Part shown: positions 12,788 to 61,875 of the stretch, in pieces
How the letters are laid out: each line of letters starts with the position of its first letter
How positions within the stretch are numbered: the stretch's first letter is position 1
IMG/VR virus record: IMGVR_UViG_3300042691_048960
Length of the DNA: 64,000 nt
Origin: an uncultured virus (IMG/VR IMGVR_UViG_3300042691_048960)
Lineage: Duplodnaviria; Heunggongvirae; Uroviricota; Caudoviricetes
Direction: 5' to 3' (one strand)
Made by a program: the position numbers and the translations under genes
Notes under the pieces: generated by a model
Told to the model about the DNA's origin: nothing
Database searches by the model: none
Seen by the model: only the letters and a program-made list of their open reading frames with translations

Positions 12788-13113
12788 GGGTAACTCCTTT
12801 GGGTGTTGATTATGAAGGTTGCAAACTCATCTCCGGCGAAGTGGAACCGATTGCCGCATCGCCGTAGAATCTTTTCGTCATCGAGCCACACGCGGTGCGG
12901 ATCATCAGGGTCGCAAAACACCAGATGCACCGTGCCATCCGCCGATTCAGCGACGTTTGCCAGTGGGCCGATGGTCTGAATCACGCCGACAAATGTGCCG
13001 TTTTCGGTGACTTCAGGGCGCGCTAATCCGCGCACCAAATGCAGGTACATCGCCATTGCGTTGCTCGCGTTTCGGTTAGTGAACGGTTGCTGCGGATACC
13101 GATAGCATCTCAA
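12784..13113 (-). CDS. Hypothetical protein
   Basis: ORF overlapping both neighbours in the operon. Confidence 0.45.
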   Translation of the reverse strand: MRCYRYPQQPFTNRNASNAMAMYLHLVRGLARPEVTENGTFVGVIQTIGPLANVAESADGTVHLVFCDPDDPHRVWLDDEKILRRCGNRFHFAGDEFATFIINTQRSYP

Positions 13114-13462
13114 GCCATGCGTGCAGCCGGTTGGTCAGCACCGTCTGGATGCTCTGATCGATGCCCTTCTTTGGCACGCGGGTATGCGTCGTGCCTTTGC
13201 AGCGAAACCAGATCGATTCAGGAATGGCCTTGCGGTGATACATATCGACCTTCACCAGCATTTTATGGTCAGGCGACAGCTTGCCCTGCTGCTCGGTGTT
13301 AAAGGCAATCTCAACCCGCATGACGGATGCGCCACGATGTTTCACCGTGATGCTGCCGGGCATCGGGCTTACTGGAATCATGAGGCTTTCCTTTGCTTGA
13401 CGCTCAGGCAGCTTCGGATCGAGGTTTAATAGTTGTTCATAATGCTCTGCATGAATGCACAT
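13076..13462 (-). CDS. Hypothetical protein, distant paralog of 12374-12787
   Basis: Shares the Q.G.L.PD..M.V.VDM.H..A.P.S and WL..L pattern; start at ATG 13462 after AAGGAG. Confidence 0.55.
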   Translation of the reverse strand: MCIHAEHYEQLLNLDPKLPERQAKESLMIPVSPMPGSITVKHRGASVMRVEIAFNTEQQGKLSPDHKMLVKVDMYHRKAIPESIWFRCKGTTHTRVPKKGIDQSIQTVLTNRLHAWLEMLSVSAATVH

Positions 13463-43278: not shown

Positions 43279-44217
43279 TTACAATGGCCATGAGGGAGCA
43301 TTGGCGGCTTCTTGGCGTTGCGATTCTCTCCCTGATATTACTGCTGCTGTATTTGGGCCAATAGCGGCGGGAGGGACATTGACACTACGATCTGCTGCCA
43401 TTTCTTTGGAAAAATACCTGTCCATATATTGCTTCATATCCGTTTTGGCAAAGTCACCATCGTAGCTTTCGTTTTTATCGAACTGCACACCTGCAAACAG
43501 TGCTTGCCTCGCTAAACATATGCCGCTGGGGTCTCTTAGCCATTCAATGGGCTTCACTTCTATCCAGCACGCTTCTCCTGCCTCTGGCGTGTGGCCATTT
43601 GATAGCACGGAGTCTTCATCGCAGGGCTTCGCCTCCACGCGGATATACTTTTTACCGTTATGCTGATATTCTATGTATTCTTTTGCGCTAAAGGGCGTGT
43701 CGTAAGCATCGTATTCTTCACCGTCGAATGTATATTTCTTGCCTGTGGCTTGCAGTTTCCGTGTGGTGAGTGCTTTTTCCAATTTCTCACTGACCTCTTC
43801 GGTAGCTATCGTCTGCGGATATTCACCATATTCGACGACATCTACCCCAGAAATTTTTTGCGAAGGCTTCGCTTCGCTCAGCCTGATTGAAGATGCAACC
43901 GATGATGGCAAAGCGGGGGGCGCACCAAGACACCGTAAGTCCGGATAGTCATAGTTCCGGTCACCGTCGTCATGGACGGCGCGGACATATCCATCTCCGC
44001 TGGAAGAGGCCGGCCAAACAGCACCTGTTCGTTGACCATCGCTGGTCTGATCCCGACCCATATAACCACCCAACACGATGGCAAGGTCACTCATGCCTGT
44101 TTTTGTGCCATAGGACTTCATTACCTGAAGCTGACCTTTTCCTTGGTCATCACCCCAGATTTGTTGATCCGTCAGAAATGTGGTCTCAATGTTCATAGTG
44201 CCGCTTCGGTTAACCAT
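43279..44217 (-). CDS. DGR target protein 1 (variable repeat in N-terminal third)
   Basis: Contains VR1; full-length paralog of 49404-50321. Confidence 0.9.
   Translation of the reverse strand: MVNRSGTMNIETTFLTDQQIWGDDQGKGQLQVMKSYGTKTGMSDLAIVLGGYMGRDQTSDGQRTGAVWPASSSGDGYVRAVHDDGDRNYDYPDLRCLGAPPALPSSVASSIRLSEAKPSQKISGVDVVEYGEYPQTIATEEVSEKLEKALTTRKLQATGKKYTFDGEEYDAYDTPFSAKEYIEYQHNGKKYIRVEAKPCDEDSVLSNGHTPEAGEACWIEVKPIEWLRDPSGICLARQALFAGVQFDKNESYDGDFAKTDMKQYMDRYFSKEMAADRSVNVPPAAIGPNTAAVISGRESQRQEAANAPSWPL
43908..44020 (-). repeat. DGR variable repeat VR1
   Basis: 113-bp ungapped match to TR with 17 differences, 15 at TR adenines (minus strand). Confidence 0.92.
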
Positions 44218-45907: not shown

Positions 45908-46020
45908 GCAAATCGGGGCGCGCACCAAGATTCCGTTTGTTCGGATTGTTATAGTTCCGGTCACCGTTGTTATTGACGGCGCGGACATTTCCATTTTCGT
46001 TGGAAGAGGCCGACCAAACA
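45908..46020 (-). repeat. DGR template repeat (TR)
   Basis: Intergenic between avd and RT; reads VWSASSNENGNVRAVNNNGDRNYNNPNKRNLGARPDL in the VR frame, with 11 AAY codons and 31 adenines. Confidence 0.93.
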
Positions 46021-46073
46021 TGGAGCGCACAAAATAAGCCTTCCCTTAATTGAAACCTTTCGATTTCAAATCT

Positions 46074-46683: not shown

Positions 46684-49416
46684 TTACTTCATCGCATGGT
46701 GCGCACGCTCCAGTGTCGCACGTTTATGTTCGCCCGTAACGGTGGGGCTTATCGGAGTATTCTGTATACGCTCTAGTAGCAAAGTTTCAAGTCCATCGCT
46801 AACTGTTGCGGTACTGGTGTGATGGTACGCTCCAACACGGCCAGGGAATTTTTCTTTTAACTTATTCGCCACATCATCCAATGCGGTTTTCCCATTCTCT
46901 ACTACAACGAAATCAACGCTGGTCATAGGGCAGTTCTCAAGCAACTTGCGCACGGTTTCAAAGGAAGCATTAGAATCAGAAATACCACCATCCGATAAGA
47001 CTATGATGTGGCTGTAGCCTGTTTTTGAATTAGCACCAGAGTGCTGCTTTTGCCCCTCAGCCAGCTGCCCCGTAATATGGCGAATGGATGGAGCAAGAGA
47101 GGTTCCCCAGCCCTGATTTTGCCTAATACCAGCAATACGTTTGCCAATTTCACGTTTATCATCACCGGGCTTCACCAACATAAGCGGTTCTGCATTCCCC
47201 CAAAGTCCCATGTAGAAATTAGCATGACGTTTGGCGGTTACATCACTTTTGCACGCTTCATTCAACACACAACCCGCGTGCATTCCCGACTTGATAGGTG
47301 GAAACGGCCAGCTTTGTCCATTTGAGCCGGAAGATTCGTGCATACTGCCTGAACCATCGACCAGCAAAACCACATCCATATTACTTGGAATGGGCGCGGA
47401 TTTGTCGCCCTCAAAACGTTGTGCATCGGCTTCTTCTACTGGCTGACCGCGCAAGATTCGTTTTACAAGCTGGGTATGCTTACCTCGGTCAAGCCGTCTC
47501 GTGTCGCCATCTACAGGCAATAGCGTGTGTTCTGGCGCAATCCTCGCTTCGTATTCCAACTGCCGCGCCCGCAATTGGTCAATCAACACCTGCCGCGAAC
47601 GGATTTCCGAAGCAAATGCTACCACCATGCCTTGGTAGTCACTCCAGTCACCCACCTTGGGCTTTGAAGCTACATTGGATGTGCCGATACCTTTGGCTGG
47701 TTTGAAGCCTTGCCCGCTTCCCGGTTTAGAAGAAGGTGAAGCGGGAGATGAGCCTTCGTCATCGCCACCTTCGCGCTCCCCGCGTTCGGTGCGTGCTTTT
47801 TCCAATTCTTCGATGGTCTGACCCGGATCTGTATTGTTCCCTTCGGCTGGTTTTCCTGCGCCGGGTTTTCCGCCTTCTTTGCTAGGGGTCGTCGGCGGGG
47901 CATCCACTCCTGGCATGTCGCCAACACCATCTACTTTGATTGGCTCTTCGCTGCCGCCAGAGGGCGCTCCATCACCTGCGCCACCACCACCGCCTTTACC
48001 TTCACCTTCTTTAGACTCGCCTTTGCCACCTTTTCCGCCTTGCTGGGGATTACCTTGCCCATCTCCTTCTTTACCTTCGCCTTTACCGTCACCTTTGCCT
48101 TCACCTTTTTCATTTCCTTGACCATCCTGCTTATCACCGCTTTGAGGCGGGGGATTTTGGCCATTGCCTTTTTGCTGCATTTGCTCGTCGAGTTTTTTGT
48201 CCTGTTGATCAAGCATCGGCTCTACGACATGAGCGAAGAAAGTGTCGTAAATTTCCTCAATGCGCTTATTGCGCTTACGTGAATACTCCAGTGTCGCCTC
48301 GGCCAGATACGCCGCTCCTCGCATCATATCGCTGGAATTAGGCTGGAGGTTCTCCACGCCATCTTTACCGCCGCAGAGTTCTTTTAAGACTTCAAGCGCC
48401 TCCATGCCCGACTTGCCGTCTTTTGTGGTAATCCAATCAGGATTTACACCCAGTGCGCGCCAACCATCCTCCGTGTCAGGAAAATAACCGTTATTGCGGA
48501 AGAAAGAATAACGGACGGCATTTTTAGTATTCTGAAAACGTGAGGCGGGTGTATCAGTCGGCGCTTCTCTATCGCCGATCAACCCATCCACCAATATCGC
48601 TTCAGATGAATTACGCGCAAGCACATGGTCTTTTCGGATGCGACGACCTTGATTCACCGTCCAGCGATCCACAAGATTATTTTCAGCTTCATCGGCAACC
48701 AAATAACGATAATGCCGTTCATTGGAAATCCGCCTTAAATGCTTGTACTCATCTTGGGTTAGGGATGTATCTTTACCCTTTTTCCTCAAGCCTTCTATTT
48801 GTTCATCCAGCGCGGCAATCTTCTCACCGAAGCCTTTGGTGAGCTGGCTATGACCTATCTCGTGAAAGGCAACAGCGCGGGCGATATCGAAACCAACACC
48901 CATGCCCAGAATAAGATCAAGGTTGATGTGGTTATCCGTGGGGCTGTAATAGAAGCTGCTACCAAGCTCGCCCCATTTAACCCGTGCATCTTTGTTTAAG
49001 CCCGTGGTAGCCACATAGAACGCCAGCCGTTCCTTTTCGGTTTGTGCTGCACCATCGGGAGAAGCAAACTGCTTCCATAGTTTCGAGCTGTAAAAATTCT
49101 CACCTTCTTTTTGTGCCAGATAAGCAAGATTGATTGCCCAGAGCAGCGATGCTTCAGGCGAATTCACATGAGGGGTGTGTGGCGCAACACCCGCTACAAC
49201 TGCCGCCTCTGCGTTTCTTTTTTCATAGGCATAATTATTGAACGCATCACTAGGCACAACGGCTTCAAGCTCACGCATGAGCTTATCTCGCACAGCTTCA
49301 TCAATCTTACCTTTTACCGCCTGAGTTACGAACTCCTGCTGAACAGCGGCAATCGGCACTGCTTTGGTATGTTCTCGTTCATGCTCTTTTCTGAATTCTG
49401 TCATTATAACGGCCAT
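46684..49416 (-). CDS. vWA-domain protein with N-terminal HExxH (peptidase-like) region and Gly-rich linker
   Basis: AFHEIGH motif; G/K/E low-complexity linker; MIDAS LLVDGSGSM, GTS, IVLSDG. Alternative start at 49404 (TAATG overlap with target 2). Confidence 0.85.
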   Translation of the reverse strand: MAVIMTEFRKEHEREHTKAVPIAAVQQEFVTQAVKGKIDEAVRDKLMRELEAVVPSDAFNNYAYEKRNAEAAVVAGVAPHTPHVNSPEASLLWAINLAYLAQKEGENFYSSKLWKQFASPDGAAQTEKERLAFYVATTGLNKDARVKWGELGSSFYYSPTDNHINLDLILGMGVGFDIARAVAFHEIGHSQLTKGFGEKIAALDEQIEGLRKKGKDTSLTQDEYKHLRRISNERHYRYLVADEAENNLVDRWTVNQGRRIRKDHVLARNSSEAILVDGLIGDREAPTDTPASRFQNTKNAVRYSFFRNNGYFPDTEDGWRALGVNPDWITTKDGKSGMEALEVLKELCGGKDGVENLQPNSSDMMRGAAYLAEATLEYSRKRNKRIEEIYDTFFAHVVEPMLDQQDKKLDEQMQQKGNGQNPPPQSGDKQDGQGNEKGEGKGDGKGEGKEGDGQGNPQQGGKGGKGESKEGEGKGGGGGAGDGAPSGGSEEPIKVDGVGDMPGVDAPPTTPSKEGGKPGAGKPAEGNNTDPGQTIEELEKARTERGEREGGDDEGSSPASPSSKPGSGQGFKPAKGIGTSNVASKPKVGDWSDYQGMVVAFASEIRSRQVLIDQLRARQLEYEARIAPEHTLLPVDGDTRRLDRGKHTQLVKRILRGQPVEEADAQRFEGDKSAPIPSNMDVVLLVDGSGSMHESSGSNGQSWPFPPIKSGMHAGCVLNEACKSDVTAKRHANFYMGLWGNAEPLMLVKPGDDKREIGKRIAGIRQNQGWGTSLAPSIRHITGQLAEGQKQHSGANSKTGYSHIIVLSDGGISDSNASFETVRKLLENCPMTSVDFVVVENGKTALDDVANKLKEKFPGRVGAYHHTSTATVSDGLETLLLERIQNTPISPTVTGEHKRATLERAHHAMK

Positions 49417-50321
49417 GAGGGAGCATTAGCGGCCTCTTGGCGTTGTGCTTCCCTCCCTGATAGGACTGCGGCTGTATTAGGGCCAATAGCGGCAGGGACA
49501 CTGACATTACGCCCCGCTTCCATCTCCTTTGCAAAATGATTCTGGAGGTACTTTTTCATGTCCGTGTTCTCAAACTTACCATCGTAGCGTTTGTTCCTGT
49601 CGAACTGCACGCCTGCAAACAGTGCCTGCCGTGCTACACATATGCCGCTGGGATCTCTTAGCCACTCGATGGGCTGTACTTCTACCCAGTAGACTTCACC
49701 CGTTTGTGGTGTCTTACCGTTAGAGAGCACGGAATGATCGTTGTCGTAGTCGTAGGGCTTCGCCTCCACACGAATATACTTCTTACCCTTATGCTGGTAT
49801 TCAGCATGCTCCTTCGCGTTGAACGGCTTGTCGTAAGCGTCGCGTTTCTCACTATCAAAATTGTATGTTTTGCCTGTTTTCTGCAATTGATTCCTTGAGA
49901 ACGCCTGTTCCAACTCCCTAGTTATATTTTCCTCTGCTATCGTCTGCGGATATTCACCATATTCGACGACATCTACCCCAGAAATTTTTTGCGAAGGCTT
50001 CGCTTCGCTCAGCCTGATTGAAGATGCAACCGATGATGGCAAAGCGGGGCGCGCACCAAGATTCCGCTTGTCCGGATTGCTACAGTCCCGGTCACCGCTG
50101 TTATAGACGGCGCGGACATCTCCATTCGCGTCGGAAGAGGCCGACCAAACATATGCACTGCGTTGACCGTCGCTAGTTGTTGTATTGCTGCTCGACACAG
50201 CACCACCGAGTAGAACAGCCAAATCACTCATGCCGACCTTCGTGCCATAGCTCTTAATCGCCTGAAGCGCTTTATCGCCCCAGATCTGCTCCTCCTTTAA
50301 TAATGTTATATCCATGCTCAT
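49404..50321 (-). CDS. DGR target protein 2 (variable repeat in N-terminal third)
   Basis: Contains VR2; lies inside the AAA-vWA operon. Confidence 0.92.
   Translation of the reverse strand: MSMDITLLKEEQIWGDKALQAIKSYGTKVGMSDLAVLLGGAVSSSNTTTSDGQRSAYVWSASSDANGDVRAVYNSGDRDCSNPDKRNLGARPALPSSVASSIRLSEAKPSQKISGVDVVEYGEYPQTIAEENITRELEQAFSRNQLQKTGKTYNFDSEKRDAYDKPFNAKEHAEYQHKGKKYIRVEAKPYDYDNDHSVLSNGKTPQTGEVYWVEVQPIEWLRDPSGICVARQALFAGVQFDRNKRYDGKFENTDMKKYLQNHFAKEMEAGRNVSVPAAIGPNTAAVLSGREAQRQEAANAPSWPL
50039..50151 (-). repeat. DGR variable repeat VR2
   Basis: 113-bp ungapped match to TR with 12 differences, all at TR adenines. Confidence 0.95.
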
Positions 50322-50324
50322 CTT

Positions 50325-50639
50325 CTATTGCCCCTGCGTTTCCCACAGAATGCGCTTTTTAAGCGGATTCCGCTGCAATATGCTGCGTGTAATAGCCTGA
50401 GTGACATCCGCGCTGGCAGGGATGTAAATAAACTCACATTCAGGGCTTGTAATGGCCTCTTCCAGTGCGCGGGCATCCGTTGTCACAGTCACCTTGGGAT
50501 GATTCTGTAATTCGGCCTTCTGCCATGCTTCACTAACGCTATAAATTGCCGAGCCTGACACTTCATCAATCAGATTGTCCAGCGCATGCTGCAAAGCCAA
50601 TTGCGGAATGTTCTCTATAATTTGCTGTTCTGGAATCAT
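50325..50639 (-). CDS. Small hypothetical protein (104 aa) between AAA ATPase and target 2
   Basis: ATG 1 nt after the AAA stop; stop 3 nt before the target 2 start. Confidence 0.65.
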   Translation of the reverse strand: MIPEQQIIENIPQLALQHALDNLIDEVSGSAIYSVSEAWQKAELQNHPKVTVTTDARALEEAITSPECEFIYIPASADVTQAITRSILQRNPLKKRILWETQGQ

Positions 50640-50640
50640 A

Positions 50641-53136
50641 TTACACACTCCTGCTTGCAGTATGGCTTCCATCCAGCATCGTCGGTGAGAAAGGCCTGAT
50701 TCCCTGATCTGTGAGCAGCTTTTCCAAGCTGGCGCTGGCTTTTTCATTTGGCACAAAATTTCGATCTTCAAATGCAACACGCAAATCATCCGTAAAGCCT
50801 GCGGTATTCGCCCCCAACCATGCCTTCACTTGGCTTGCGGCATCCCTATCTTTGGCGTTCACAACAGTAACACTGCTATCGCGCCCCATTTCCACTGTCG
50901 GCTTAGTAAATGCAATCACCAGACTTTTACCTGTCTGTTTATTATGCACCACATGAAGCCTAGCGTAAGCATCCGCTCCCTTGTCAGAACCCTTGGCTAT
51001 CGTAGTGGTAATAACACATGGCACATTGCCAGAATAGGATGCAGCGGGATTGGAGTTGGCACCATCAGGGGTTTTGGAAATAGCCTGCAATAGCTCCTTG
51101 CCCACATAGGGAAGCGCAAGGGTAGTGATAGCCTTATCCTGATCCACCAGTTTTGCTGGTGGATGCTGTGCGATAAATTCAGCGACATTCGCCCCGCCAG
51201 GCTTGGTTTTATCTTCCGTGCGCGATGCAACAGTGACGACATCTGTGAACGCCCCAGCTGTGATATTATCTGGGTTATCTGTAATGACATGCGCCCCGAC
51301 TTTTTCTTCGCCCAAGAATTTCGGTGGCACATCCTGCAAGCCCTTAAGGAATACTTCTACTTGCTGTATAGTCACTCCATCAAAATCAGGATATTTCGCT
51401 TTCAGATAGCCATTAATCACCGCCTGCGCCTGACGCACTTCATCGGTCGTTGCCTCAACCGCAGTGGATTTGATATTTAATCTATCCAGCACCGAGTTTG
51501 GGCCGATAACACCGGCTTCCTCCCACACTTTCCGCAGCTGTGCGTAAAGTTTGGGGCGCTTGGCACCATCAGGCGTTACACCAGCAATATCATCGATCCA
51601 ATGTTCCACTACCGACTTTAGCCTATCTCCCATCTTAGCCTCAGCGGGCTCTTTGGAAGGCGTGATATTAGGCATATCCCAATTACTGAAATCCGCGCTT
51701 TTGGTTTCTGTGGCTGGGACACTCTCCGGCATGCGCTGTATTGCCTGCCGCAGAGAGCGCAGCGCGGTACGCGGCGTTAGTTTCTGGGCTTTGTCCCCGG
51801 GCTTATCGACCTCGAATCGAATGCCCGACATATCCGCTTGCTGCAATACCGACGATTCAGGATCGAGCAATGCAGCTGATTCATGATAGGCGCGTCCCAG
51901 TGCTTGAGATACTGCAATTACATCTTGCCAGTGATCGAGCAGCTTTGTTTGCAAACGCGGCACTGCCGTTTCATTCGCATGGCGGATACTTTCAAGATTA
52001 CGACGGAATTTATTAGGGTCTGCAACAATCCACTGCGCATCATCCTGATTTGCGCCATGCTGCATGTGACCTTTTTCAAGTCGTGATAGCGTCGTTATGG
52101 GAACGCCAGTCAGTACCTGAGAAATACGATGAGCCCAATCTTCCTCTGTGAAAGCGGGAATCTCTTTTTTAACGAGGCGGCTTTCCAACGAGTCCGAAAT
52201 CGGATGAACATCCGCGCCGTCTTTTGGTTTGTTCGATGTCATGATGACTTTGGGAATATCGCCATGACGCAGCGTAAATTCACCCAAGTTGCCGAGCGGA
52301 ATCGTCAGCTGGCTGATTTCACCATTAACCACCTGCCACACCTGCTGCAACGCTGCTTCTGAGCCAACCTTGCGACGGGAGAATTCATCAATCACAAGGG
52401 GGCGGTGCTCTTTTGCCGCACGGATCAGTGCGCCATCCACGTCCTTAAAACCAATACGCAATCCACCGTTCCATTCCTGATACTTCTGAACAGAACTCAG
52501 CACATCATCGATTTGTTTGCGTGTAATGTCGGAGCTTTCCAAGCCTTTCCAGTCAAACACTGGATTTCTGCCTTTCTCTTCAGATAAGAGAGAATGAAAT
52601 TCAGGCTTTTCCTCTGTGCCTTTATTTACTTTCAATTCACGCAGTGCCTTGAGCGACGGAGCAGTAAGCGTGCCATCGCGGAGCGCGCTATTGATGCGGT
52701 CAATCAAATCGCTATTGGCATTGGAATCAAATACTGTTTCAAACAGGAGCGATTCCATGTTTTTGCCGCCCGCATCGTAAATCACCGCACCTTCTGGGTG
52801 CATGGCATTCCCGATCAGGTTGGCAAGGTATGATTTACCGTAGGCGGGATCGGATTCCAGATACACAAGCGGATTGTGTAGAATAGCTTCAAAAGCATCG
52901 AGCATGCCCGGCACGGGCATATTGCGCATCAGTTCGGGCAAAACATGCTTATATTCTCTTGCAGAATGTAGCCACAGCGGATCGGTATCGCTCTGAATTA
53001 CCCCCATGCCGAACGTGCGGACGCCATTATCTTCCCCGCGCTGGCGTGTTGGCCAAGGGCGCTGGCGCGTACCAATCGGTAGCGGCTTGTATCCCGCATC
53101 GGTTTCACGCTGTCGTGCAGTAGGTAGCTCCGCCAT
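50641..53136 (-). CDS. MoxR/AAA_5-like AAA+ ATPase with long C-terminal extension
   Basis: Variant Walker A SDPAYGKS, G.LIRA, Walker B LVIDEF, sensor MTSN, arginine finger SLESRL. Confidence 0.78.
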   Translation of the reverse strand: MAELPTARQRETDAGYKPLPIGTRQRPWPTRQRGEDNGVRTFGMGVIQSDTDPLWLHSAREYKHVLPELMRNMPVPGMLDAFEAILHNPLVYLESDPAYGKSYLANLIGNAMHPEGAVIYDAGGKNMESLLFETVFDSNANSDLIDRINSALRDGTLTAPSLKALRELKVNKGTEEKPEFHSLLSEEKGRNPVFDWKGLESSDITRKQIDDVLSSVQKYQEWNGGLRIGFKDVDGALIRAAKEHRPLVIDEFSRRKVGSEAALQQVWQVVNGEISQLTIPLGNLGEFTLRHGDIPKVIMTSNKPKDGADVHPISDSLESRLVKKEIPAFTEEDWAHRISQVLTGVPITTLSRLEKGHMQHGANQDDAQWIVADPNKFRRNLESIRHANETAVPRLQTKLLDHWQDVIAVSQALGRAYHESAALLDPESSVLQQADMSGIRFEVDKPGDKAQKLTPRTALRSLRQAIQRMPESVPATETKSADFSNWDMPNITPSKEPAEAKMGDRLKSVVEHWIDDIAGVTPDGAKRPKLYAQLRKVWEEAGVIGPNSVLDRLNIKSTAVEATTDEVRQAQAVINGYLKAKYPDFDGVTIQQVEVFLKGLQDVPPKFLGEEKVGAHVITDNPDNITAGAFTDVVTVASRTEDKTKPGGANVAEFIAQHPPAKLVDQDKAITTLALPYVGKELLQAISKTPDGANSNPAASYSGNVPCVITTTIAKGSDKGADAYARLHVVHNKQTGKSLVIAFTKPTVEMGRDSSVTVVNAKDRDAASQVKAWLGANTAGFTDDLRVAFEDRNFVPNEKASASLEKLLTDQGIRPFSPTMLDGSHTASRSV

Positions 53137-53315: not shown

Positions 53316-53585
53316 CTAGAGTTTGAATTTCTCTGGAACTTTATCACCAAATAATAACCACATGGGGTGCTTGTCGAGCACTTCGCAGAGGGCGATAACT
53401 TCAAAGTCTTTTACGAAGCGTTTGCCATTTTCTAAATCAGATACGCCTGTAGAACTGATTTCAATATCGCAGTCCATATTAAGCGCGGTCGCTAAATCAA
53501 GCTGAGTCATGTCTTTCTCGACGCGCGCAAGTTTCACTCGCTTACCACATTTGTTAGTTGCCTTTATAACACGTTGTTTAGCCAT
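53316..53585 (-). CDS. XRE-family HTH regulator
   Basis: G.RVK.AR....MTQ.DLA...VS.LENGKR.V.DFE...L. Confidence 0.85.
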   Translation of the reverse strand: MAKQRVIKATNKCGKRVKLARVEKDMTQLDLATALNMDCDIEISSTGVSDLENGKRFVKDFEVIALCEVLDKHPMWLLFGDKVPEKFKL

Positions 53586-53716
53586 TCTGCCCCCATAAAG
53601 TTGGTTGAAGGGCAGTAGGTTATCTGGTTAATAAACTTGATGTTTCGCGGATTGCGAAATATAATACCATAATGCGAATTTATGAGTAAAAAACACAAAA
53701 TATTACCCAATCCGCT

Positions 53717-54091
53717 ATGATCTCAAAACCACCCCATTCTTTGGACATTATGATCGGTCAACAGCTTCGGCTTCGTCGTAAAATGATGGGTATGAGCCAA
53801 GCTGAGGTTGCCAAGCGATGCGGCATCACATTCCAACAAATTCAAAAATATGAAAACGGTGCAAGCAGCCTTAGTGCACGCCGTCTATACGAATTGTCGC
53901 AGGTGCTAAAGGTGTCTCCGCTCTATTTTTATGCGCCACTTCAAGAAGAAACGTTGCCAGCTGTAGACGCGCTCACGACACAGGCAATTCATCTGGTGCA
54001 GGACTACAGTTCCATCCCCTCTGCGAAGGTGCGTAACGGCATCGCCGCCTTCGTGCGTGAAGTCGCTAAGGAGTCAGGCCGTGGGATATAA
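53717..54091 (+). CDS. XRE-family HTH regulator
   Basis: IG..LRLRR...GMSQ..VA...GITFQQIQKYE.G. Confidence 0.9.
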   Translation: MISKPPHSLDIMIGQQLRLRRKMMGMSQAEVAKRCGITFQQIQKYENGASSLSARRLYELSQVLKVSPLYFYAPLQEETLPAVDALTTQAIHLVQDYSSIPSAKVRNGIAAFVREVAKESGRGI

Positions 54092-54308: not shown

Positions 54309-55730
54309 TTGGTTAGTATTGCAGCAAGTGATTCAACGTCATGGCTACATTGCCACGGGCGGGTATGGCTGGATAAAAATCCGCCAGCTGGAGCCGCGAC
54401 TGTTACGCCAAGCGAATTTGATCAGCTCATCATCACAATGGGGTTACGACACGAATGGGATATCAAGCGCGAACTGGCGCGACAGTATCAGCTTGTCGAA
54501 GCCGTTTCCGAAGAGCACACTCGCGCGCTTATGGAAGCCGGGGCGCAGATCATCTACCAAGGGCAGCTATCCGAAGGCGACATTATCGGCAAACCCGATT
54601 TTCTTATCCGCCATGAATCCGGCCAGTATCAGGCTGCCGATGCGAAGCTGGCGCGAAGCGAGGAAAAAAAGGAAATCCAAATCCAGCTTGGCATTTACCG
54701 TAAGCTGCTGGGCAACGGCCTCAACGCGATAGTGTTCCTCGGCAATGGAAGTGTAACCGAAATTGGCGATGAAGCCGACATTGACGTTGAAAAATTCACA
54801 CTCAGTATGCGGGAATTGCTTGCACAAAAAACCATGCCGCAGGTTCGCTACAGCGAAAGCAAATGCCGAGCCTGCAACTATTACGACCACTGCAAAGCCT
54901 CGTTCATAGCCAAAGGCGAATTGACGTTGCTTTATGGCATTGATTCACGCGCTGCGCCTGAATTGGAAAAACAGGGAATCGATACGATTAGGAAACTGGC
55001 CGAAGCCGACCCCGCCAAAATTGAAGACGTGCCATACCTAAAAGGCTATGAGAAGCGTTACAGAGCCGTTTTACAAGCCAAGTCTTACTTCGATGACAGT
55101 ATCCACCAGTTGAAGCCTATAACACTTCCTAATGGCACGTGGATTCATTTTGACGTTGAGGCAAACCCGCTGGCAGAATCCGGTGATGATAACGTTTACC
55201 TTTGGGGGCTTTTGAAGCCACCCTATAACGGTCAAGCATTCGATTACATCTGGGCGGATTCGGAAAAACAAGACCGTGAAGGCTGGGAAGCGTTCTTGAC
55301 GAAAATCGCTGAATACCGCGCACAATATCCTGACCTGGTTCTGGCACATTTCTCTGGTTACGAGGTGCAGAAAATCAGAGCCTATGCGGAACGCTACAGT
55401 ATGCAGGCGCATCCGATCGTCGAATGGTTGCTTGGCGATAACACGCCGCTCTTTGACCTGCTGGAGACGGTTAGGGATTGCCTCGTATTGCCGGTGGCGA
55501 GCTACGGCCTGAAATATATCTGCAAACATCCGAAGCTGGTAAATTTCCAATGGGATGATACGGATTCAGGTTCGCAGTGGTCAGTCGTGCAATATGTGAA
55601 TTACCTTGGCGAACTGCGCCCTGATGACCGCGAACGGCTTAAGCGCAATATCCTGACCTACAATTTTGATGACGTGGTGGGTACGCGCAAGCTAGAGGAA
55701 TGGCTGCGCGCGTTGCCGCCTATGCAATAG
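54309..55730 (+). CDS. TM0106-family RecB-like nuclease with RNase H-like C-terminus
   Basis: GKPDFL...DAKLA...Q...Y, C..C.Y...C, FDVE, SYGLK, YNFDDV..T. Confidence 0.85.
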   Translation: MVSIAASDSTSWLHCHGRVWLDKNPPAGAATVTPSEFDQLIITMGLRHEWDIKRELARQYQLVEAVSEEHTRALMEAGAQIIYQGQLSEGDIIGKPDFLIRHESGQYQAADAKLARSEEKKEIQIQLGIYRKLLGNGLNAIVFLGNGSVTEIGDEADIDVEKFTLSMRELLAQKTMPQVRYSESKCRACNYYDHCKASFIAKGELTLLYGIDSRAAPELEKQGIDTIRKLAEADPAKIEDVPYLKGYEKRYRAVLQAKSYFDDSIHQLKPITLPNGTWIHFDVEANPLAESGDDNVYLWGLLKPPYNGQAFDYIWADSEKQDREGWEAFLTKIAEYRAQYPDLVLAHFSGYEVQKIRAYAERYSMQAHPIVEWLLGDNTPLFDLLETVRDCLVLPVASYGLKYICKHPKLVNFQWDDTDSGSQWSVVQYVNYLGELRPDDRERLKRNILTYNFDDVVGTRKLEEWLRALPPMQ

Positions 55731-57579
55731 GCTCCGGCGCGGGAATGAAACCAGCCCTGCCGAGGGCAGTATCTTTCGTGAATGGGATATAGTTCATCTT
55801 GCTCGTCACCGCTGCCGGCGGATCGTCGTTCTCTAAAACGATGACTTGCATACCTTGCGGCAAATCGCAGAGTTTCGCGTAAAATTTTTCCTTCATATCG
55901 TCTGTAATGGCTTCATCCTTTGCCACGTTCTTGTCAGCGCCACGATATGTTACCAACGGAGAATCCAAAACAACGAAGCCTGGATGCGGCATTTTTTTGC
56001 TTACGCAGAATTCCATTAACGAAATTATGAATGCAGCGTGAGTAATGGCTCTATAACCTTTGCCCTGTTCGGCACGGTTTTTATCCCCAATGATAATATC
56101 CTGATTCACTTCGCTAAAGGCAACGCGCCCTAAGTTCGGATATGACCAGTCAGTAAGTGTTTTCTCGATTATTTTCATTAGCTCGCCGGCTTCTGCCGCT
56201 TGTAAGCCGGTTAAGACAGGCGCAGTTTTAGGCGGGTTTTTCAGGTCTTTCTCTGCGGTGACTTTCAGATCTTCCATCACCTTGATTTGCTCCATCGTGC
56301 CAATCATTATTTCGACATTCTTTTTCGTTTCAAAAAGCTGTCGCAGATTGTTCCTTAGCACCGAGAGCTGCGGCTCTAGCTGCTTACCCACAACGCTGTC
56401 GATGCGCTTATATTCCTTTTCATTCAACTCCTTGAGCTTCGTGAAATCGTTGAGTTCGCTGCTGACTTGGGTAATCGTTTTGGCGAGGTCATTCTTTTGT
56501 GAGTTGATTTTCTTTTTCTCGCGCTCGCATGATGCTTTGATTTCAGAAATTTCTTTCTCGCTTATAACGCATTCCGGCTGATGATGCGCAGGCTCGGAAC
56601 CGCATACAGGGCAATTCACATCGTTTGAAAGGCTAAGGCCGTTACCCGTTTCTATGATAGCGTCCAGCCTATCCAAATCGGTTTGATAGTGTTGCGCCAG
56701 CAATGTAAAGCGGCTCAAAATTTCGGTTAGCTGGTCGATTTTTGACTCTGCGCCAATAGCCGTATCGTATGCAGCTTTACGTTCCTCGCGCAAATCTTCC
56801 ATGTCTTTTTGGTTCTGGAATATCTTGTTGGTATCGCCTTCGATGGTCAGACTCAATTTTTCCAGTTGATCTTCCAGCTCTTCCTTTGTGGTATCTTTTT
56901 TAACATCCATGCCACCGATGAGTTGCTGCAAAAGATTGATGCGCGCCGTAGCGTCTGCTTTACGAATTTCTGGCCGCTGCTGGACGATGATTCCGCTATA
57001 GTCGATGCCCGTTAGCATGAAGCGGAATAGTGCCTTTTCCTGCGTTTTGTCAGTATAAGGCCCAGTATAAATAGGCGACACATTTTCCTGAATCTTAATC
57101 TCATTTACCAAGAGAAGATTGCGCAAAATATTAAACGTCAGACTGACCGTTTCATTATGGTCATTTCGCTTTAGCCTCTTCTCTGTAAGCCCAACCAAAT
57201 CCAAAAGAAAATGTGAAATATTCTCTTTTTTGGCGTTTGCCGAGCCGTATAGGACCGTACTTTCAGTTTCTGCCGTGATGCTCTCAAAGTCAGCTTTGTA
57301 AACCTTCATGTCGTGTGAAAGCACACTGCGTTCGAGAGTGAAATCAACGTCACCCGCTGTGACTGTCAGAAAAAGATTTGTGTATCCCTTTGCTTCCGGC
57401 GGGTCTTTTGGCGGATTCGTGCCACCCAATATGTAATTCAAGCACTCAAAAATCAGCGTTTTGCCCGTATCGGATGGGCCGGATATAACGTTAAAGCCCG
57501 GTCGGAAATCAACAACCGCAGGCTTCTTTTCTGGTATATCGCTCGTGAAAACGAGCTTTTTTAATGTCAGCCTGTTCAT
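55720..57579 (-). CDS. SMC/Rad50-like ABC ATPase of an ABC-3C (Lamassu LmuB-like) system
   Basis: Walker A GPSDTGKT, coiled coils around a CPVC zinc hook, GKGYRA, Walker B VVLDSP. Confidence 0.85.
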   Translation of the reverse strand: MNRLTLKKLVFTSDIPEKKPAVVDFRPGFNVISGPSDTGKTLIFECLNYILGGTNPPKDPPEAKGYTNLFLTVTAGDVDFTLERSVLSHDMKVYKADFESITAETESTVLYGSANAKKENISHFLLDLVGLTEKRLKRNDHNETVSLTFNILRNLLLVNEIKIQENVSPIYTGPYTDKTQEKALFRFMLTGIDYSGIIVQQRPEIRKADATARINLLQQLIGGMDVKKDTTKEELEDQLEKLSLTIEGDTNKIFQNQKDMEDLREERKAAYDTAIGAESKIDQLTEILSRFTLLAQHYQTDLDRLDAIIETGNGLSLSNDVNCPVCGSEPAHHQPECVISEKEISEIKASCEREKKKINSQKNDLAKTITQVSSELNDFTKLKELNEKEYKRIDSVVGKQLEPQLSVLRNNLRQLFETKKNVEIMIGTMEQIKVMEDLKVTAEKDLKNPPKTAPVLTGLQAAEAGELMKIIEKTLTDWSYPNLGRVAFSEVNQDIIIGDKNRAEQGKGYRAITHAAFIISLMEFCVSKKMPHPGFVVLDSPLVTYRGADKNVAKDEAITDDMKEKFYAKLCDLPQGMQVIVLENDDPPAAVTSKMNYIPFTKDTALGRAGFIPAPEPIA

Positions 57580-58076
57580 ATTGTTCCGTGCTTTAATAAT
57601 GCTTCTCTCTCGAATTCACCGCCCCATCTATCAAGATTCTCCTGAAAGAACTTATCGAGCTGTTTATCCGTGTAATCATCGAACACACTGATCACCCACG
57701 CAGCACGTTCCTTGAGCAAGCCAACATAGCGTGATTCCAGTCCATCCATGAACGGTGTGGCATTATCCGACGCCTGATAAACAATACCCGTTTTATCATA
57801 CTCCCTGATGACAAGTTTTCTACTCATCATTAAAAGCAGCCCCTGTTCCAAAATATGACGCTTCACCAGCACTTCACCAGAGCGATGCGGAGTAGCAGGA
57901 TGGATACTTTCAGGACCACCAGCATCACCGGAATGCACCAGCAGATAATCGTAAAACACCAAACGTTGTAGGTCGTAATCGCGGGGGAAGGCGTGCTCCA
58001 ATATAACAAGTGAGCGTAGGCCGCACTCAATGGCACTATTAAAAGGATGGACGGATTTAACTTTCTTGACTGCCAT
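57576..58076 (-). CDS. ABC-3C middle component (LmuC-like)
   Basis: FNS..E.GLRSL..L...DLQRLVFYDYLLVHSGD..GP.S.HP.TP.RSGE. Confidence 0.8.
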   Translation of the reverse strand: MAVKKVKSVHPFNSAIECGLRSLVILEHAFPRDYDLQRLVFYDYLLVHSGDAGGPESIHPATPHRSGEVLVKRHILEQGLLLMMSRKLVIREYDKTGIVYQASDNATPFMDGLESRYVGLLKERAAWVISVFDDYTDKQLDKFFQENLDRWGGEFEREALLKHGTI

Positions 58077-59157
58077 TTGCCCACGATACTTTATTGTTAT
58101 TGGCGAGTTGATGACAAATACCAGCTCGATCTCTTGTTTCTAATCTTTCTTTTAGCGGATGTGAATCAATCTGTATTTTGTACGCTTCTTGCACCGCATT
58201 TTTTACGCGTTCAAGGCCGTGACTATGTTCAGAAAGTATTATGTTTTCAATGCCAGTAAAAATCTCATCCTGCAATCGCTCAAACTCTCCCGCTTCCAAA
58301 TAGTCTCTTGAAAATTTGTGTAACGATTCAGCGCAATAAAAATGAATGCGGGCATCTCGCAGGTGCTTCTTCAATCCCAAATTTGCATCCACATCACTCA
58401 TGTTACAGGTGTCTTTCTGCAAAAATTCAGCATAAGCATCAAAGAGCTTTTGAATATAAACCGCTTCGATCTCAGCATGGTCATCTGGCGGAACTTCATT
58501 AGTAGGACGCAAAGGCAAGCCGCCGCCGAACCGATGATGATAGTATGGCGTTTTACGGTGAATTTCGAGCATTTGCAAAACCGTTTTGTCCTTCACGATT
58601 GAAAAATCAAACGCCTCAACATATGCCTTTAATTCACCAGTCAGCGGAATTTTTTTAGTAGAGGTGATTGCGTTCTCGCAGTGCTTCTTCCATGCTTTGA
58701 TGAGCTGTTTCCTGAGCTCGTCGGGCTTGCCCCCGCGCAGTAGTTTTGACAGCGCAGTGCCGATGCCCAGAGGGGCAACAAAATAATAGTTCTCCGGCAC
58801 AGAGTATTCTTTGATGAACGTGTAATAGCAGAGCTTTCCTAACTCAAGCCATACATCGGTCGGGTACAGCGCGTTCTTATAATGCTTACACTGATAATTG
58901 TCCCAGCCTCCTGCAAAGCCCTTATCAGTTTTGAATGCCGCAATATCTATACCTTGATCACCCGCACCACCAGCACGGCTGACGGAGTGATATTCTTTCT
59001 TTAAGCTATGGGTACATTCCTCCGTATATTGCTCCCACTCCTTATCGTCGTAGAGCTGGATAATTCTTTGCGGCAGGATATTTTGCCCGTTTTTTACCAC
59101 GTCGCTATAGGTCGGTGGCACAGCTGGAATGTCAATATCTTTAAGCTCAATTACCAT
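58057..59157 (-). CDS. ABC-3C effector (LmuA-like): restriction-endonuclease-like N-terminus plus C-terminal domain
   Basis: GGAGDQGID...YQCKHY nuclease motif; C-terminal FY.AESL...GICHQLAN...W. Confidence 0.8.
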   Translation of the reverse strand: MVIELKDIDIPAVPPTYSDVVKNGQNILPQRIIQLYDDKEWEQYTEECTHSLKKEYHSVSRAGGAGDQGIDIAAFKTDKGFAGGWDNYQCKHYKNALYPTDVWLELGKLCYYTFIKEYSVPENYYFVAPLGIGTALSKLLRGGKPDELRKQLIKAWKKHCENAITSTKKIPLTGELKAYVEAFDFSIVKDKTVLQMLEIHRKTPYYHHRFGGGLPLRPTNEVPPDDHAEIEAVYIQKLFDAYAEFLQKDTCNMSDVDANLGLKKHLRDARIHFYCAESLHKFSRDYLEAGEFERLQDEIFTGIENIILSEHSHGLERVKNAVQEAYKIQIDSHPLKERLETRDRAGICHQLANNNKVSWANGSQES

Positions 59158-59160
59158 GCT

Positions 59161-61872
59161 CTATTTCCCAAACCTCGAAAGAATCCCAGCTAACGTCGCA
59201 CTTGGCTTGATCTCGGTGTGAGGGATAAGCACATAGCGCCACGGCTTTCCGCCATGCTGTAGCTCATGTTCCGTTGCAGCCTCACACCAGCGGATAGCAG
59301 CTGCGGCTTTTTCCTTCACTTCTTCGGATTCCACATCTCGTTCGGCTTTAGGCTCACAGATCAGCTTTTCCGTTTTTGTTTCCACCACAAAGTCAGGCTC
59401 GTAGGTGTTTTCACTCGTGTAGAAGATTTTGAAATCTTCGCGCGCGGGCTTAAACCATTTGAGCACTGCGTCCTCATCTTCCAGCATCACAGCGAATTGC
59501 CGCTCAGTGTCGGAGTGGAATTTCTGGATAGGGTATAGGCATTTGCGATAGCCCTGGAAAAGCATCCCACGGATCATCGAGCGTTCATCGACATTATTGC
59601 GGAAATAGCGGGCTTTCTCACCTGCATCATAGGAAACGCTGGCAATCTTCGGACGCTCAAAACCGCGCACTACGGTCACTTCAAACTCTGTCACTCCACG
59701 GCGGAAATGTGCCTGCATCTGAGCATGAACAACGTTTGCAAGCTCCTTGCGGAAGTATTGCAGGACGTTCAGCACATCATCAGCTTCGGTCAGGTATGAG
59801 CGCAGATAGGCAACCATCTGGCCGGCGAGGTCATATAGCACATCCGCATGGTCATCATACGAGATGTCATCAAAATCCATGAGCGCCGATACGATATAGT
59901 TTTCTGGGCGTTCCTCATCGAAAATGACGTAATCGCTTTGCAACTGCTCACGCTTCGATGTGCGCAGGTGCTGAATCAGAATCTGTTGCTCAACAGGGTT
60001 GAAGCGGCCAATCCCTGCGGTATCCAGCTTGAAGTGCTCAAACGTATAGTTTTTTGAGCCTTTCGGGGTCAGGATGATGCGCGGAATATCAATCGTGTTC
60101 TGGATAAACGCATCGGTAACTTTTTTCACCAATTCCGCTACGTTCGGCTTTTCAATGATTCCAGTAAGCTCCGCTTGTGCAGGCGCAATGCGTTCTTCTA
60201 CTTGACGGATGATTTCCTGCTGGATTTTTTCTTCGCTCAAATTGCGGGAAGTTGGCAAGCGCTCAAAGGTTTTGATGGCTTCCATCGTGAACTTGGCGAC
60301 TTCCTTTTCCGCTTCGTTTAGTACCAATGGCTGCTGAACAGGACGCGCTGGTGCAGCACCAGAGGTCGATGGTTCAAAGAAGTCATCGGGCATGGATGCG
60401 GTAGCCTGGTTGCCCAGAATGGCATCAAGGTTAGAGCGTATCTCAACGGCTTTCTTCGGAGTCAGACTAATATCGCGGCCGATGACGATGCCAGTGCGGA
60501 TAATCGAGTGCTTCTCGTTGGATTCCTTAATGATTTCATCGAAGCGGTCATGCGCCACGATGGTCAGGCGATCTACCGCTGATACACCTGTGCGCTTGCC
60601 ATAAGGCAGACGCAAACCGCGCCCGATAGATTGCTCCACCAGCGTGCGTGAGTTGGCGGCGCGCAGCGGCACAATCGTGTAAAGGTTGGTTACGTCCCAA
60701 CCTTCTTTCAGCATATTCACGTGTACGACGATTTCCGTTGGTTCGTTCGGATCTTCCACCGCAAGCAAGCGCTGCACGGTTTCGTCCTTTTCCTCGCCTG
60801 ATTGCGCTGAATGCACCGTAATTACACGGTCACGGTATCTGCCTTGGAAGAAGTCATCGCTCTTAATCATCTCGACGATTTTGCCGGCATGGGTAGTGTC
60901 CTGTGCCACAACCAGCATAAACGGCTTCACATAAGGCTTATCGTTATTGTCGGCATAGACTTTCAGCTCAGTTTTCACCGTTTCATGAATGCGGATGCCA
61001 TCTTCCAGCTTGAGCTGTTCCAGCTGATCTTCTGTATAATTCGCAGCGTTGAAGTTTTCCCGCGTTGCAACGGCTGGCTCTTTCACATAGCCATCTTCCA
61101 TAGCACGATATAGCGGGTAGCTATAAATCACGTTCTTAAACGGTATCGCTTTCTTGCCTTGCTCCACCTGCGGCGTAGCGGTGAGTTCCAGCCCCAGCAC
61201 AGGTTTGAGTTCATTCAGAGCACGGATGCCCGCGCTGGCGCGATAGCGGTGCGATTCATCCATAAGCAGCACCAAATCTTCCAACTTGGAAAGATAGTCA
61301 AAATAGCTCTCACCGATATATTCTGACAGCTTGCGGATGCGGGGCGTGTTGCCACCACGGACTTCGCTGTTAATTTTCGAGATGTTGAAAATGTTGATAT
61401 GAATCGTTTCTGCCTGTCCCAAAAGGTCGGTGCCGCGCACACCGCGTCCTGTTTCATAGTTGTCGCCAGTGATGATTTCAGGCGGGTTCAGCACAAACTC
61501 TGAAATGCCCTGAAACACATATTTGCGCGTGTTCGGTGTGAAGTCCTCGATCAGCTTATTGTAAATGGTCAGGTTCGGCGCCAGCACGAAGAAATGCTTG
61601 ATGCCCTTGGCGAGGTGCAGGTAGCTGATAAATGCACCCATAAGGCGGGTTTTACCCACACCAGTGGCAAGCGCAAAGCACATAGATGGAAACTCACGTT
61701 CAAATTCCTCGACGGTTGGAAACTCAGACTTGATGATTTCCAAATCCTGCTCAAGAGTGCGCTCCTTATTCAGCGGGATGATTTCCGAGATGCGCGACAG
61801 GATTTCCAGCGATTCACGCTGCGGCGTGCGTAAGCTGAGGCGGTTGCTGATTGTGTTAATGTGTTTGTTCAT
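59161..61872 (-). CDS. res: Type III restriction enzyme Res subunit
   Basis: LATGVGKT, DESH, TATP, EGWDV, QSIGRGLR helicase motifs; C-terminal YEPDFVVE...EPK nuclease. Confidence 0.92.
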   Translation of the reverse strand: MNKHINTISNRLSLRTPQRESLEILSRISEIIPLNKERTLEQDLEIIKSEFPTVEEFEREFPSMCFALATGVGKTRLMGAFISYLHLAKGIKHFFVLAPNLTIYNKLIEDFTPNTRKYVFQGISEFVLNPPEIITGDNYETGRGVRGTDLLGQAETIHINIFNISKINSEVRGGNTPRIRKLSEYIGESYFDYLSKLEDLVLLMDESHRYRASAGIRALNELKPVLGLELTATPQVEQGKKAIPFKNVIYSYPLYRAMEDGYVKEPAVATRENFNAANYTEDQLEQLKLEDGIRIHETVKTELKVYADNNDKPYVKPFMLVVAQDTTHAGKIVEMIKSDDFFQGRYRDRVITVHSAQSGEEKDETVQRLLAVEDPNEPTEIVVHVNMLKEGWDVTNLYTIVPLRAANSRTLVEQSIGRGLRLPYGKRTGVSAVDRLTIVAHDRFDEIIKESNEKHSIIRTGIVIGRDISLTPKKAVEIRSNLDAILGNQATASMPDDFFEPSTSGAAPARPVQQPLVLNEAEKEVAKFTMEAIKTFERLPTSRNLSEEKIQQEIIRQVEERIAPAQAELTGIIEKPNVAELVKKVTDAFIQNTIDIPRIILTPKGSKNYTFEHFKLDTAGIGRFNPVEQQILIQHLRTSKREQLQSDYVIFDEERPENYIVSALMDFDDISYDDHADVLYDLAGQMVAYLRSYLTEADDVLNVLQYFRKELANVVHAQMQAHFRRGVTEFEVTVVRGFERPKIASVSYDAGEKARYFRNNVDERSMIRGMLFQGYRKCLYPIQKFHSDTERQFAVMLEDEDAVLKWFKPAREDFKIFYTSENTYEPDFVVETKTEKLICEPKAERDVESEEVKEKAAAAIRWCEAATEHELQHGGKPWRYVLIPHTEIKPSATLAGILSRFGK

Positions 61873-61875
61873 AAA

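Follow-up and report, generated by a model that had tools for sequence, protein, structure and literature searches.

The variable repeats (VRs) of diversity-generating retroelements (DGRs) are held to lie at the C-terminal end of their target genes, so that the neighbouring homing signals escape coding constraint, as stated in passages of Roux et al. (2021, PMC8144416) and Wu et al. (2018, PMC5758913). The latter paper counts an N-terminally diversified target in only three of 372 surveyed DGRs and remarks that the initiation of mutagenic homing (IMH) sequence is then constrained by the coding sequence. We describe here a DGR on a 64,000-nucleotide stretch of DNA from an uncultured virus of the Caudoviricetes (IMG/VR record IMGVR_UViG_3300042691_048960), the whole of which is called the window below, whose two paralogous target genes carry the VR near the N-terminus. 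The targets would be soluble proteins of about 305 residues, probably built on a circularly permuted DUF6273/C-type-lectin-like (CLec) binding domain, a reading drawn from sequence comparison and structure modelling. N-terminal VRs and DUF6273 lectin-like targets are both already in print (PMC5758913, PMC10743442). A literature search returned no paper on a permuted lectin-like DGR target, with the limit that the supplements of Wu et al. 2018 and Roux et al. 2021, which deal with N-terminal and internal VRs, may list members of the family.

Mtd, TvpA and TaqVP, targets with a CLec/FGE-type fold, share with the window targets the adenine-specific mutagenesis from template repeat (TR) to VR, an AAY-rich TR, and a lectin-like scaffold in which a conserved strand ends the variable part, and the likeness of their folds to the window targets is weak. 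Their VR is C-terminal, whereas that of the window target occupies codons 57-95 of 305 and leaves about 210 residues, together with the presumed cis-acting signals, downstream within the open reading frame (ORF). Canonical DUF6273 domains (Pfam PF19789), represented here by the target nd4_tgt1 and by the N-terminal domain of an IgA peptidase of Thomasclavelia ramosa (PDB 9qa6), contain the same elements as the window targets, namely a G.Y..PI.W hairpin, a strand and helix with 'Y..s.m..wL', a 'VFLL/TLL' strand, a 'WWLR/YVWSAS' strand and 'G.RPA', and the VR falls in the same hairpin before G.RPA. In contrast to them, the window targets have the two parts swapped, hold an insertion of about 90 residues in the hairpin and give no match to the Pfam model. 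Like the window targets, the tentaclins are DGR targets with a VR near the gene's 5' end and a DUF6273-related lectin-like domain, and occur two to a cassette. Their domain, however, is in canonical order (Pfam positions 1-171 colinear), and their VR counts as N-terminal solely on account of the Ig-like domains that come after it, whereas the window targets, which have neither a Pfam domain nor an Ig-like domain and are modelled as one globular body with a short tail, would owe the N-terminal VR to the permutation of the domain itself.

A further point of comparison is given by the MoxR-vWA ternary conflict systems, in which DGRs diversify FGS domains of lectin fold, according to passages of Kaur et al. 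(2020, PMC7159879). As far as those passages describe them, these systems resemble the window cassette, whose ATPase and von Willebrand factor A (vWA) proteins are candidates, in bringing together an AAA+-like ATPase gene, a vWA gene and a DGR-diversified lectin-fold protein in a defence-rich neighbourhood. The FGS domain is there mostly fused to the vWA protein, with a C-terminal VR, whereas the window has a separate, putatively permuted DUF6273-like gene; moreover, the vWA protein of the window has an HExxH motif, and the ATPase and vWA matches are sub-threshold. By this analogy the cassette looks like a variant of the MoxR-vWA theme with a separate permuted DUF6273-like head.

Judged by its sequence, the locus is a DGR of working type. 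It lies at 43.3-53.1 kb on the minus strand, from which the cassette is read, and is complete, with a reverse transcriptase (RT), an Avd-like gene, a TR of 114 nucleotides and two paralogous targets (Table 1). In ungapped register the TR corresponds to gene nucleotides 170-283 of the 305-residue target and 198-310 of the 312-residue target, and this bears out the original observation, made from the letters of the sequence, that the VRs cover about codons 57-95 and 66-104; the roughly 200 residues that it placed behind them amount to about 210 and 208. Since adenines account for 32 of the 114 TR bases, the chance that all 12 mismatches of the first-named VR would fall on them is about 2e-7. Eighteen of the 38 in-frame TR codons contain an A, 12 of them being AAY or AAA, and A-to-N changes can reach a stop at only one codon, the AAA at codon 85. 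AAY-rich TRs are a general habit of DGRs, and for that reason the earlier remark that such a TR suits an internal VR, though true as far as the single stop-prone codon goes, points to nothing specific here. DGR-type RTs are marked by [ILV]GxxxSQ together with YxDD, and the residues found at these places are listed in Table 1. The Avd-like protein spans the DivGenRetAVD profile from end to end (1-104 of 104) with 28 bits against a cut-off of 80, and its bAvd match reaches 25 bits against a cut-off of 40.

Neither target matches any Pfam family at E<=0.1, and the 305-residue target has no NCBIfam family either; yet they have many relatives. Among representatives of clusters at 50% identity, 1561 were found at E<=1e-3, 1069 at E<=1e-10 and 302 at E<=1e-30, and a search of clusters at 90% identity gave 503 proteins at E<=1e-3 among 1826 candidates. 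Residues 3 to 270, approximately, were matched as one unit among the 150 relatives listed; the module lies mostly at the extreme N-terminus, followed by varied C-terminal extensions, and some proteins carry two to three tandem copies of it. Eight related loci were recovered in metagenome-assembled genomes of Alphaproteobacteria. One of them (L001) has the entire cassette, with proteins 64-90% identical to those of the window: the ATPase, the small ORF, the target, the vWA protein and Avd, together with the TR, the RT and the second target; another (L007) has Avd, RT and one target, while five others are without an RT within about 8 kb. The VRs of L001 cover codons 57-94 and 56-95, with 11 of 11 and 14 of 15 mismatches on an A of the TR, and that of L007 covers codons 55-95 (20 of 24). 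The N-terminal position of the VR is a family trait, recurring in related DGR loci. In 77 relatives with at least 60% identity, the mean column entropy at the 12 AAY/AAA codon positions is 3.01 bits, compared with 0.73 for the other VR codons and 0.94 for the remainder of the protein, and 12 of the 15 most variable columns are within residues 64-87.

The order of parts on which the proposed permutation rests can be set out as follows. A canonical DUF6273 domain runs from the hairpin (G.Y..PI.W) through the first strand, the first helix, the 'VFLL' strand, the second helix, the 'WWLR' strand and the variable hairpin to the 'G.RPA' strand, and the VR therefore ends the domain. The chain of the window target would instead begin at the 'TLL' strand, which is of the 'VFLL' type, and pass through the VR to GARPAL (residues 1-95); a linker of about 20 residues (96-115) would lead to the hairpin, residues 116-222, expanded by a beta insertion of about 90 residues, and the original first strand (228-235) and first helix (254-267) would then fold back on the N-terminal half and close the fold. 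With the chain so permuted, the VR would keep its usual place in the fold and yet stand at codons 57-95 of the gene.

The motifs of the 305-residue translation are in the order DITLLKEEQ, YVWSASS, VR and GARPAL, then YGEYPQ...PIEWL, ICVARQALF and TDMKKYLQNHF, and the order first noticed (ITLLKEEQ..W.AS..GARPAL before YGEYPQ..PIEWL..MKKYLQNHF) is thus present in the protein. The order is opposite in a canonical comparator, the tentaclin nd4_tgt1 (phage nd4, OR777945; 21060-22769 of L009), taken from the tentaclin paper PMC10743442, which matches DUF6273 over 1-171 with E 3e-40 and shows the hairpin 'FGSLYGSPIVW' without an insertion, the strand 'VTLVTNQI', the helix 'YSNLRQWLNS', 'DKIFPLS', 'WYYWLRD', the VR and 'GLRPAC'. 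When 113 family proteins (24 + 89) were scanned singly with the Pfam DUF6273 model, which has 172 positions and a gathering score of 23.5 bits, matches were found in nine, always piecewise. In five relatives it was the N-terminal part of the module that matched, to profile positions 107-171, namely in P0162 (residues 57-117), P0222 (54-101), P0231 (45-95), P0261 (35-96) and P0207 (44-85), and positions 20-67 fell on its C-terminal end in P0192 (242-290, with the module at 29-275) and P0201 (333-365, module 104-359). A colinear match inside a single module was found in none of the 113, while in two tandem proteins the profile was colinear across the junction between copies, at residues 214-375 of P0129 (profile 5-170, E 7.8e-6) and 500-626 of P0204 (profile 28-167). 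P0129, P0162 and P0207 were above the gathering score, and in the family alignment A3 the domain was found at E<=1 in seven of 100 members. Tandem members of this kind, with the canonical order restored across their junctions, would be the sort of intermediate that a route by duplication and truncation needs.

Profile comparison by hhalign of the family with 91 canonical DUF6273 proteins aligned family positions 54-101 with canonical positions 228-279 (probability 89%, E 2e-6); the next match, at E 0.023, paired 176-238 with 9-76 and brought PI.W and the strand behind it into register. Further searches were negative: DUF6273 had no match in the genomes of five relatives and 14 control genomes, and profile searches of the PDB with the family alignments A2 and A3 returned chance-level matches to hemopexin repeats only.

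Structure modelling led in the same direction. An AlphaFold run on 45 close sequences did not resolve residues 1-100 (predicted local distance difference test, pLDDT, 56.8) and was confident for residues 108-230, and with 100 diverse sequences residues 1-275 formed one compact body (pLDDT 95.2; predicted template modelling score, pTM, 0.92). VIA-align placed model residues 2-122, weakly, on 9qa6_A 208-303, with 88 residues covered. Chain 9qa6_A matches the canonical DUF6273 profile over positions 8-265 (E 1e-22), and the N-terminal domain of this structure (residues 31-322) is named DUF6273 by its authors in the portion of PMC12402451 that describes it. Its stretch from 'EKVFLLDV' to 'GVRPAFYLDS' is at chain indices of about 180-257, and since residue numbers differ from these indices by an offset of 22-30, this is the part that VIA-align had placed on the N-terminal half of the target. 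By the model, the N-terminal half corresponds to the second part of the solved canonical domain. C-type-lectin-like domains, judged by their titles, made up 25 of the 50 rows of the alignment list, each of them starting at model residue 1-3 and ending at 94-121. In the carbohydrate-recognition domains of SP-D and ASGPR, the aligned ranges start some 25-35 residues into what we take to be the domain, presumably past its first strand and helix. Foldseek found nothing at E<=1e-3 in PDB or BFVD, and the second-ranked BFVD entry was a phage 'DUF6273 domain-containing protein' (E 0.04, template modelling (TM) score 0.25).

Mean-field direct coupling analysis (DCA) of 259 domain instances (effective number of sequences, Neff, 193) gave top pairs within each half that fit the sheets of the model (127-216, 153-174 and 180-214), with 123-151 a further pair in the region of the hairpin, and 13 of the 60 top pairs join residues 1-105 to 225-270. 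Pairs 99-228, 90-235 and 32-232 rank 1, 5 and 6, and 89-233, 7-235, 4-256, 5-264, 7-255 and 29-265 likewise tie the N-terminal half to the C-terminal end, with pair 7-90 also high. In eight shuffles of the C-terminal segment the highest score was 1.16, and 11 observed pairs were above it, up to 3.75. Pairs 90-235, 89-233, 7-235, 7-90, 4-256, 5-264 and 7-255 all score higher than any of the eight shuffles. The insertion of about 90 residues in the hairpin also couples to residues 34-37 and 86. The pattern suggests a sheet formed by residues 5-8, 89-94 and 228-235 whose N-terminal strand is covered by helix 254-267, as a permuted lectin-like fold would predict. An N-terminal part of about 100 residues folding as an independent domain had been named as the outcome that would overturn the idea, and coevolution and the whole-chain pTM of 0.92 argue against such a domain. 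The suggestion of a circularly permuted CLec-type target is thus supported by the swapped order of the Pfam matches, the order in nd4_tgt1, the 9qa6 alignment, the couplings and the compact model.

Several results weigh on the other side. The mapping of the C-terminal half is the weaker side of the permutation argument, since it is based on two sub-threshold Pfam matches, two junction matches, one hhalign match (E 0.023, with a probability of just 2%) and the likeness of motifs. Hidden Markov models (HMMs) of the family segments 1-42, 113-130 and 223-271 matched none of the 91 tentaclin-type DUF6273 proteins, and that of segment 208-240 gave insignificant matches only. Global hhalign with the family profile permuted was no better than with the native order, the canonical profile being narrow (Neff 2.9), and a search with an earlier low-confidence model, confident mainly in the C-terminal half, did not list 9qa6. 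The shuffles used with the couplings do not keep phylogeny, so that part of the excess over them could stem from relatedness and the real signal is at most as large as this excess. A rival reading is a rearrangement of two domains, in which the N-terminal 100 residues or so would be a complete minimal CLec domain of intimin/invasin type whose own C-terminal end holds the VR, and residues 110-270 would make up a distinct accessory domain, placed on the opposite side in canonical DUF6273 proteins. VIA-align did place the small lectin-like domains of intimin (862-939), invasin (910-986) and Lcl (333-401) whole on model residues 1-3 to 94-96, one Atlas cluster aligned to residues 100-276 only (TM 0.51), as fits a separable C-terminal half, and the first model was confident for residues 108-230 with the N-terminal part unresolved. 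We nevertheless regard both the complete N-terminal domain and the accessory domain as unlikely, as the N-terminal half lacks the segment matching Pfam profile 20-67, which is found at the C-terminal end (P0192, P0201) and at junctions (P0129, P0204), the top coupled pairs tie 228-235 and 254-267 to residues 4-7, 32 and 89-90, the pTM is 0.92 for the whole chain, and residues 3-270 are one conserved unit in the relatives listed.

It is much harder to accept that there is no homology to DUF6273 or CLec beyond the VR scaffold, with a new fold in which G.YPQ, PI.W and RPAL arose by convergence or through copying by the retroelement, and we give this very little credence. The Pfam matches outside the VR in a consistent swapped order, the alignment with 9qa6, which from residue 2 runs well past the VR, and the Atlas feature search, in which 22 of 30 matches were DUF6273 clusters at a score of 0.95, all speak against it. 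This view does find some footing in the window proteins being without a Pfam match, in the lack of a significant Foldseek match, and in segment 54-100 of the family being the sole one whose HMM matched canonical sequences, 75 of 91. A permuted domain remains in our judgement the probable explanation.

If the domain is permuted, homing signals at the 3' edge of the VR would have to lie in the reading frame. Over most stretches of 30 nucleotides the identity of the two target genes is 53-90%, with a minimum of 33%, and they have a single run of 114 identical bases, at gene nucleotides 273 to 386 of the 305-residue gene. Homology to the TR ends inside this block, and the TR therefore cannot have written the identity downstream. 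Within the block are a GC-rich IMH-like stretch at the end of the homology and a hairpin of 6 base pairs, GCGAAG/CTTCGC; the DNA fold of the part following the VR was no more stable than that of shuffles (z +1.7). We consider the block a candidate for an overlap of coding sequence and cis-acting homing signal. It is a concrete sequence in which the two functions would overlap, and the constraint is thereby directly testable.

Taken with the size of the family, the permutation would mean that a very large unnamed group of targets breaks the rule of the C-terminal VR in a regular way, by rearranging the scaffold. Domain libraries would miss a major class of DGR targets, the window proteins being without a Pfam match, and a natural scaffold with its variable face near the N-terminus may serve DGR-based protein engineering.

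Table 1. Positions of the DGR, its target genes and the surrounding features in the 64,000-nucleotide window
Feature	Position	Strand	Remarks
Target gene 1, 312 aa	43279..44217	-	Paralogue of target 2, 70% protein identity
114-nt identical block, copy in target 1	43805..43918	-	At position 300 in gene 1
VR1, codons 66-104 of the 312-aa target	43908..44020	-	Mismatches at TR adenines 15/17
DGR reverse transcriptase, 350 aa	44322..45374	-	RVT_1 E 3.5e-19; LGNQTSQ at 184, YMDD at 216
TR	45908..46021	-	114-nt direct repeat of 50039-50152, 89% identity; non-coding stretch
Avd-like accessory protein, 202 aa	46074..46682	-	N-terminal extension; bAvd E 2.2e-5; DivGenRetAVD E 1.7e-6
910-aa vWA/HExxH protein	46684..49416	-	HEIGH at 185, G/K/P/E-rich stretch, DGSGS at 687; VWA_2 E 6e-4
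Target gene 2, 305 aa	49404..50321	-	Candidate permuted DUF6273/CLec-like module (residues 1-270) and conserved C-terminal tail
Residues 227-267 of target 2: strand 'ICVARQALF' and helix 'TDMKKYLQNHFAKEM'	49521..49643	-	Likened to first strand and helix of canonical DUF6273
Residues 116-222 of target 2: 'YGEYPQ ... PIEW' beta-hairpin with beta-rich insertion of ~90 residues	49656..49976	-	From secondary structure of the model and DCA pairs
114-nt identical block, copy in target 2, codons 91-129	49936..50049	-	Last VR codons, linker and first hairpin strand; candidate cis-acting retrohoming signal
N-terminal half of target 2, residues 1-95: 'TLL' strand, helices, YVWSASS strand, VR hairpin, GARPAL strand	50037..50321	-	Likened to second part of canonical DUF6273/CLec domain
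VR2, codons 57-95 of the 305-aa target	50039..50152	-	114 nt; mismatches at TR adenines 12/12
Small conserved ORF, 154 aa as listed	50325..50789	-	Between ATPase and target; 71% identical in L001; no family match
AAA+-like (MoxR/AAA_5-type) ATPase candidate, 831 aa	50641..53136	-	GvpN E 1.8e-4; Walker-B-like LVIDE at 247
Lamassu-type system, complete	55720-59157	-	LmuB 619 aa E 2e-164, LmuC 166 aa E 4e-55, LmuA 366 aa E 2e-115
Type III restriction-modification pair	59161-63537	-	Res 903 aa E 6e-232, Mod 553 aa E 7e-224
473-aa protein: Cas4-like nuclease part (residues ~86-196) and RNase_H_2 superfamily part (280-466)	54309-55730	+	Between helix-turn-helix regulators and Lamassu
Prophage-like block	16991-42157	+	DAM-like methylase/GNAT, terminase, portal (DUF4055), MuF, capsid, tail tube, tape measure, distal tail like that of gene transfer agents

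The cassette is transcribed in the order ATPase-like gene, small ORF, 305-residue target, 910-residue gene, Avd-like gene, TR, RT and 312-residue target. The VWA_2 match of the 910-residue protein reaches 20.8 bits against a cut-off of 27, and its HEIGH is a zinc-peptidase-like motif by sequence. The 831-residue protein matches GvpN with 21 bits against a cut-off of 267 and has no strict Walker A, and the small ORF as listed overlaps the end of its gene by about 150 nucleotides. That the ATPase and the vWA assignment are both sub-threshold weighs against our account. Among structure neighbours in the Atlas the module stands at the N-terminus of AAA_5/AAA ATPases, and AAA_5 was found in two of 20 long relatives scanned, while BLASTP of the 831-residue protein against the AAA_5 parts of the fused relatives P0157 and P0203 showed no similarity. 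No hydrophobic stretch suggesting a membrane span was found in the four cassette proteins examined, and PADLOC gave no match for the targets, Avd, the vWA protein, the ATPase or the small ORF (orf154). The cassette is flanked by prophage tail genes like those of gene transfer agents (GTAs; 28.9-42.2 kb, plus strand) and by helix-turn-helix (HTH) regulators, a Cas4-like protein, Lamassu and a type III restriction-modification system.

The company of an AAA+-like ATPase and a vWA/HExxH protein, in the neighbourhood of Lamassu and type III restriction-modification, suggests a diversified intracellular sensor. By analogy the targets would act, in concert with these two proteins, as hypervariable binders of ligands inside the cell, and a role in the virion seems less likely. 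The tail genes, which encode a tube, a tape measure and GTA-like hub and fibre proteins, adjoin the cassette, and the DUF6273 targets of gut phages were proposed as receptor binders in the relevant passage of PMC10743442, so that one might take the window targets for virion proteins or receptor binders belonging to the neighbouring prophage, of tentaclin or Mtd type, and not for partners of the ATPase and vWA protein. We hold this to be improbable. The cassette is on the strand opposite to the tail genes, L001 carries the cassette and has no match to the seven window tail proteins searched, and tblastn of the target, its C-terminal half and P0131 against 50,697 phage records gave no match; furthermore, neither an Ig-like nor any other Pfam domain occurs in the targets, and the module is fused to AAA_5 ATPases elsewhere.

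More tentatively, and as a possibility that we would not yet favour, the permuted module may be the exchangeable recognition head of an intracellular conflict system of AAA+/vWA-peptidase type that is reprogrammed by the DGR, with the permutation adaptive in two ways. The variable face would then be at a free N-terminus, with ATPase or other domains fusable behind it, as in other clusters, and a tolerant linker would hold the cis-acting homing signals inside the ORF. The escape of a large family from the rule that the VR must be C-terminal would be explained in this manner.

Apart from the module itself, the C-terminal tail of the 305-residue target (residues 268-305; 49404-49517, minus strand) is conserved past the globular part, with the consensus ..GP.TAA....R..QRQRAL.DPSQGL in relatives, and the tail DNA of the two paralogues is 83-93% identical; the tail may be a docking peptide. 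Arrays of two to three modules are joined to DUF4116 or ankyrin repeats in the relatives P0129, P0131, P0204 and P0162, and further relatives have BspA-type leucine-rich, MORN or pentapeptide repeats behind the module. In the 910-residue protein, a low-complexity stretch of about 180 residues rich in G, K, P and E corresponds to degenerate DNA repeats at 47967-48128. The Pfam names for the LmuC and LmuA proteins are ABC-3C MC2 and CTD6, and the GTA-like distal tail proteins of the prophage block comprise DUF2460, a Gp84-like hub, a GTA_TIM/Rcc01698-like protein and DUF2793. In L001 a divergent pair of HTH genes (12518-13284) is situated between the TR and the RT gene, and its homologues in the window are at 53316-54091, there outside the cassette.

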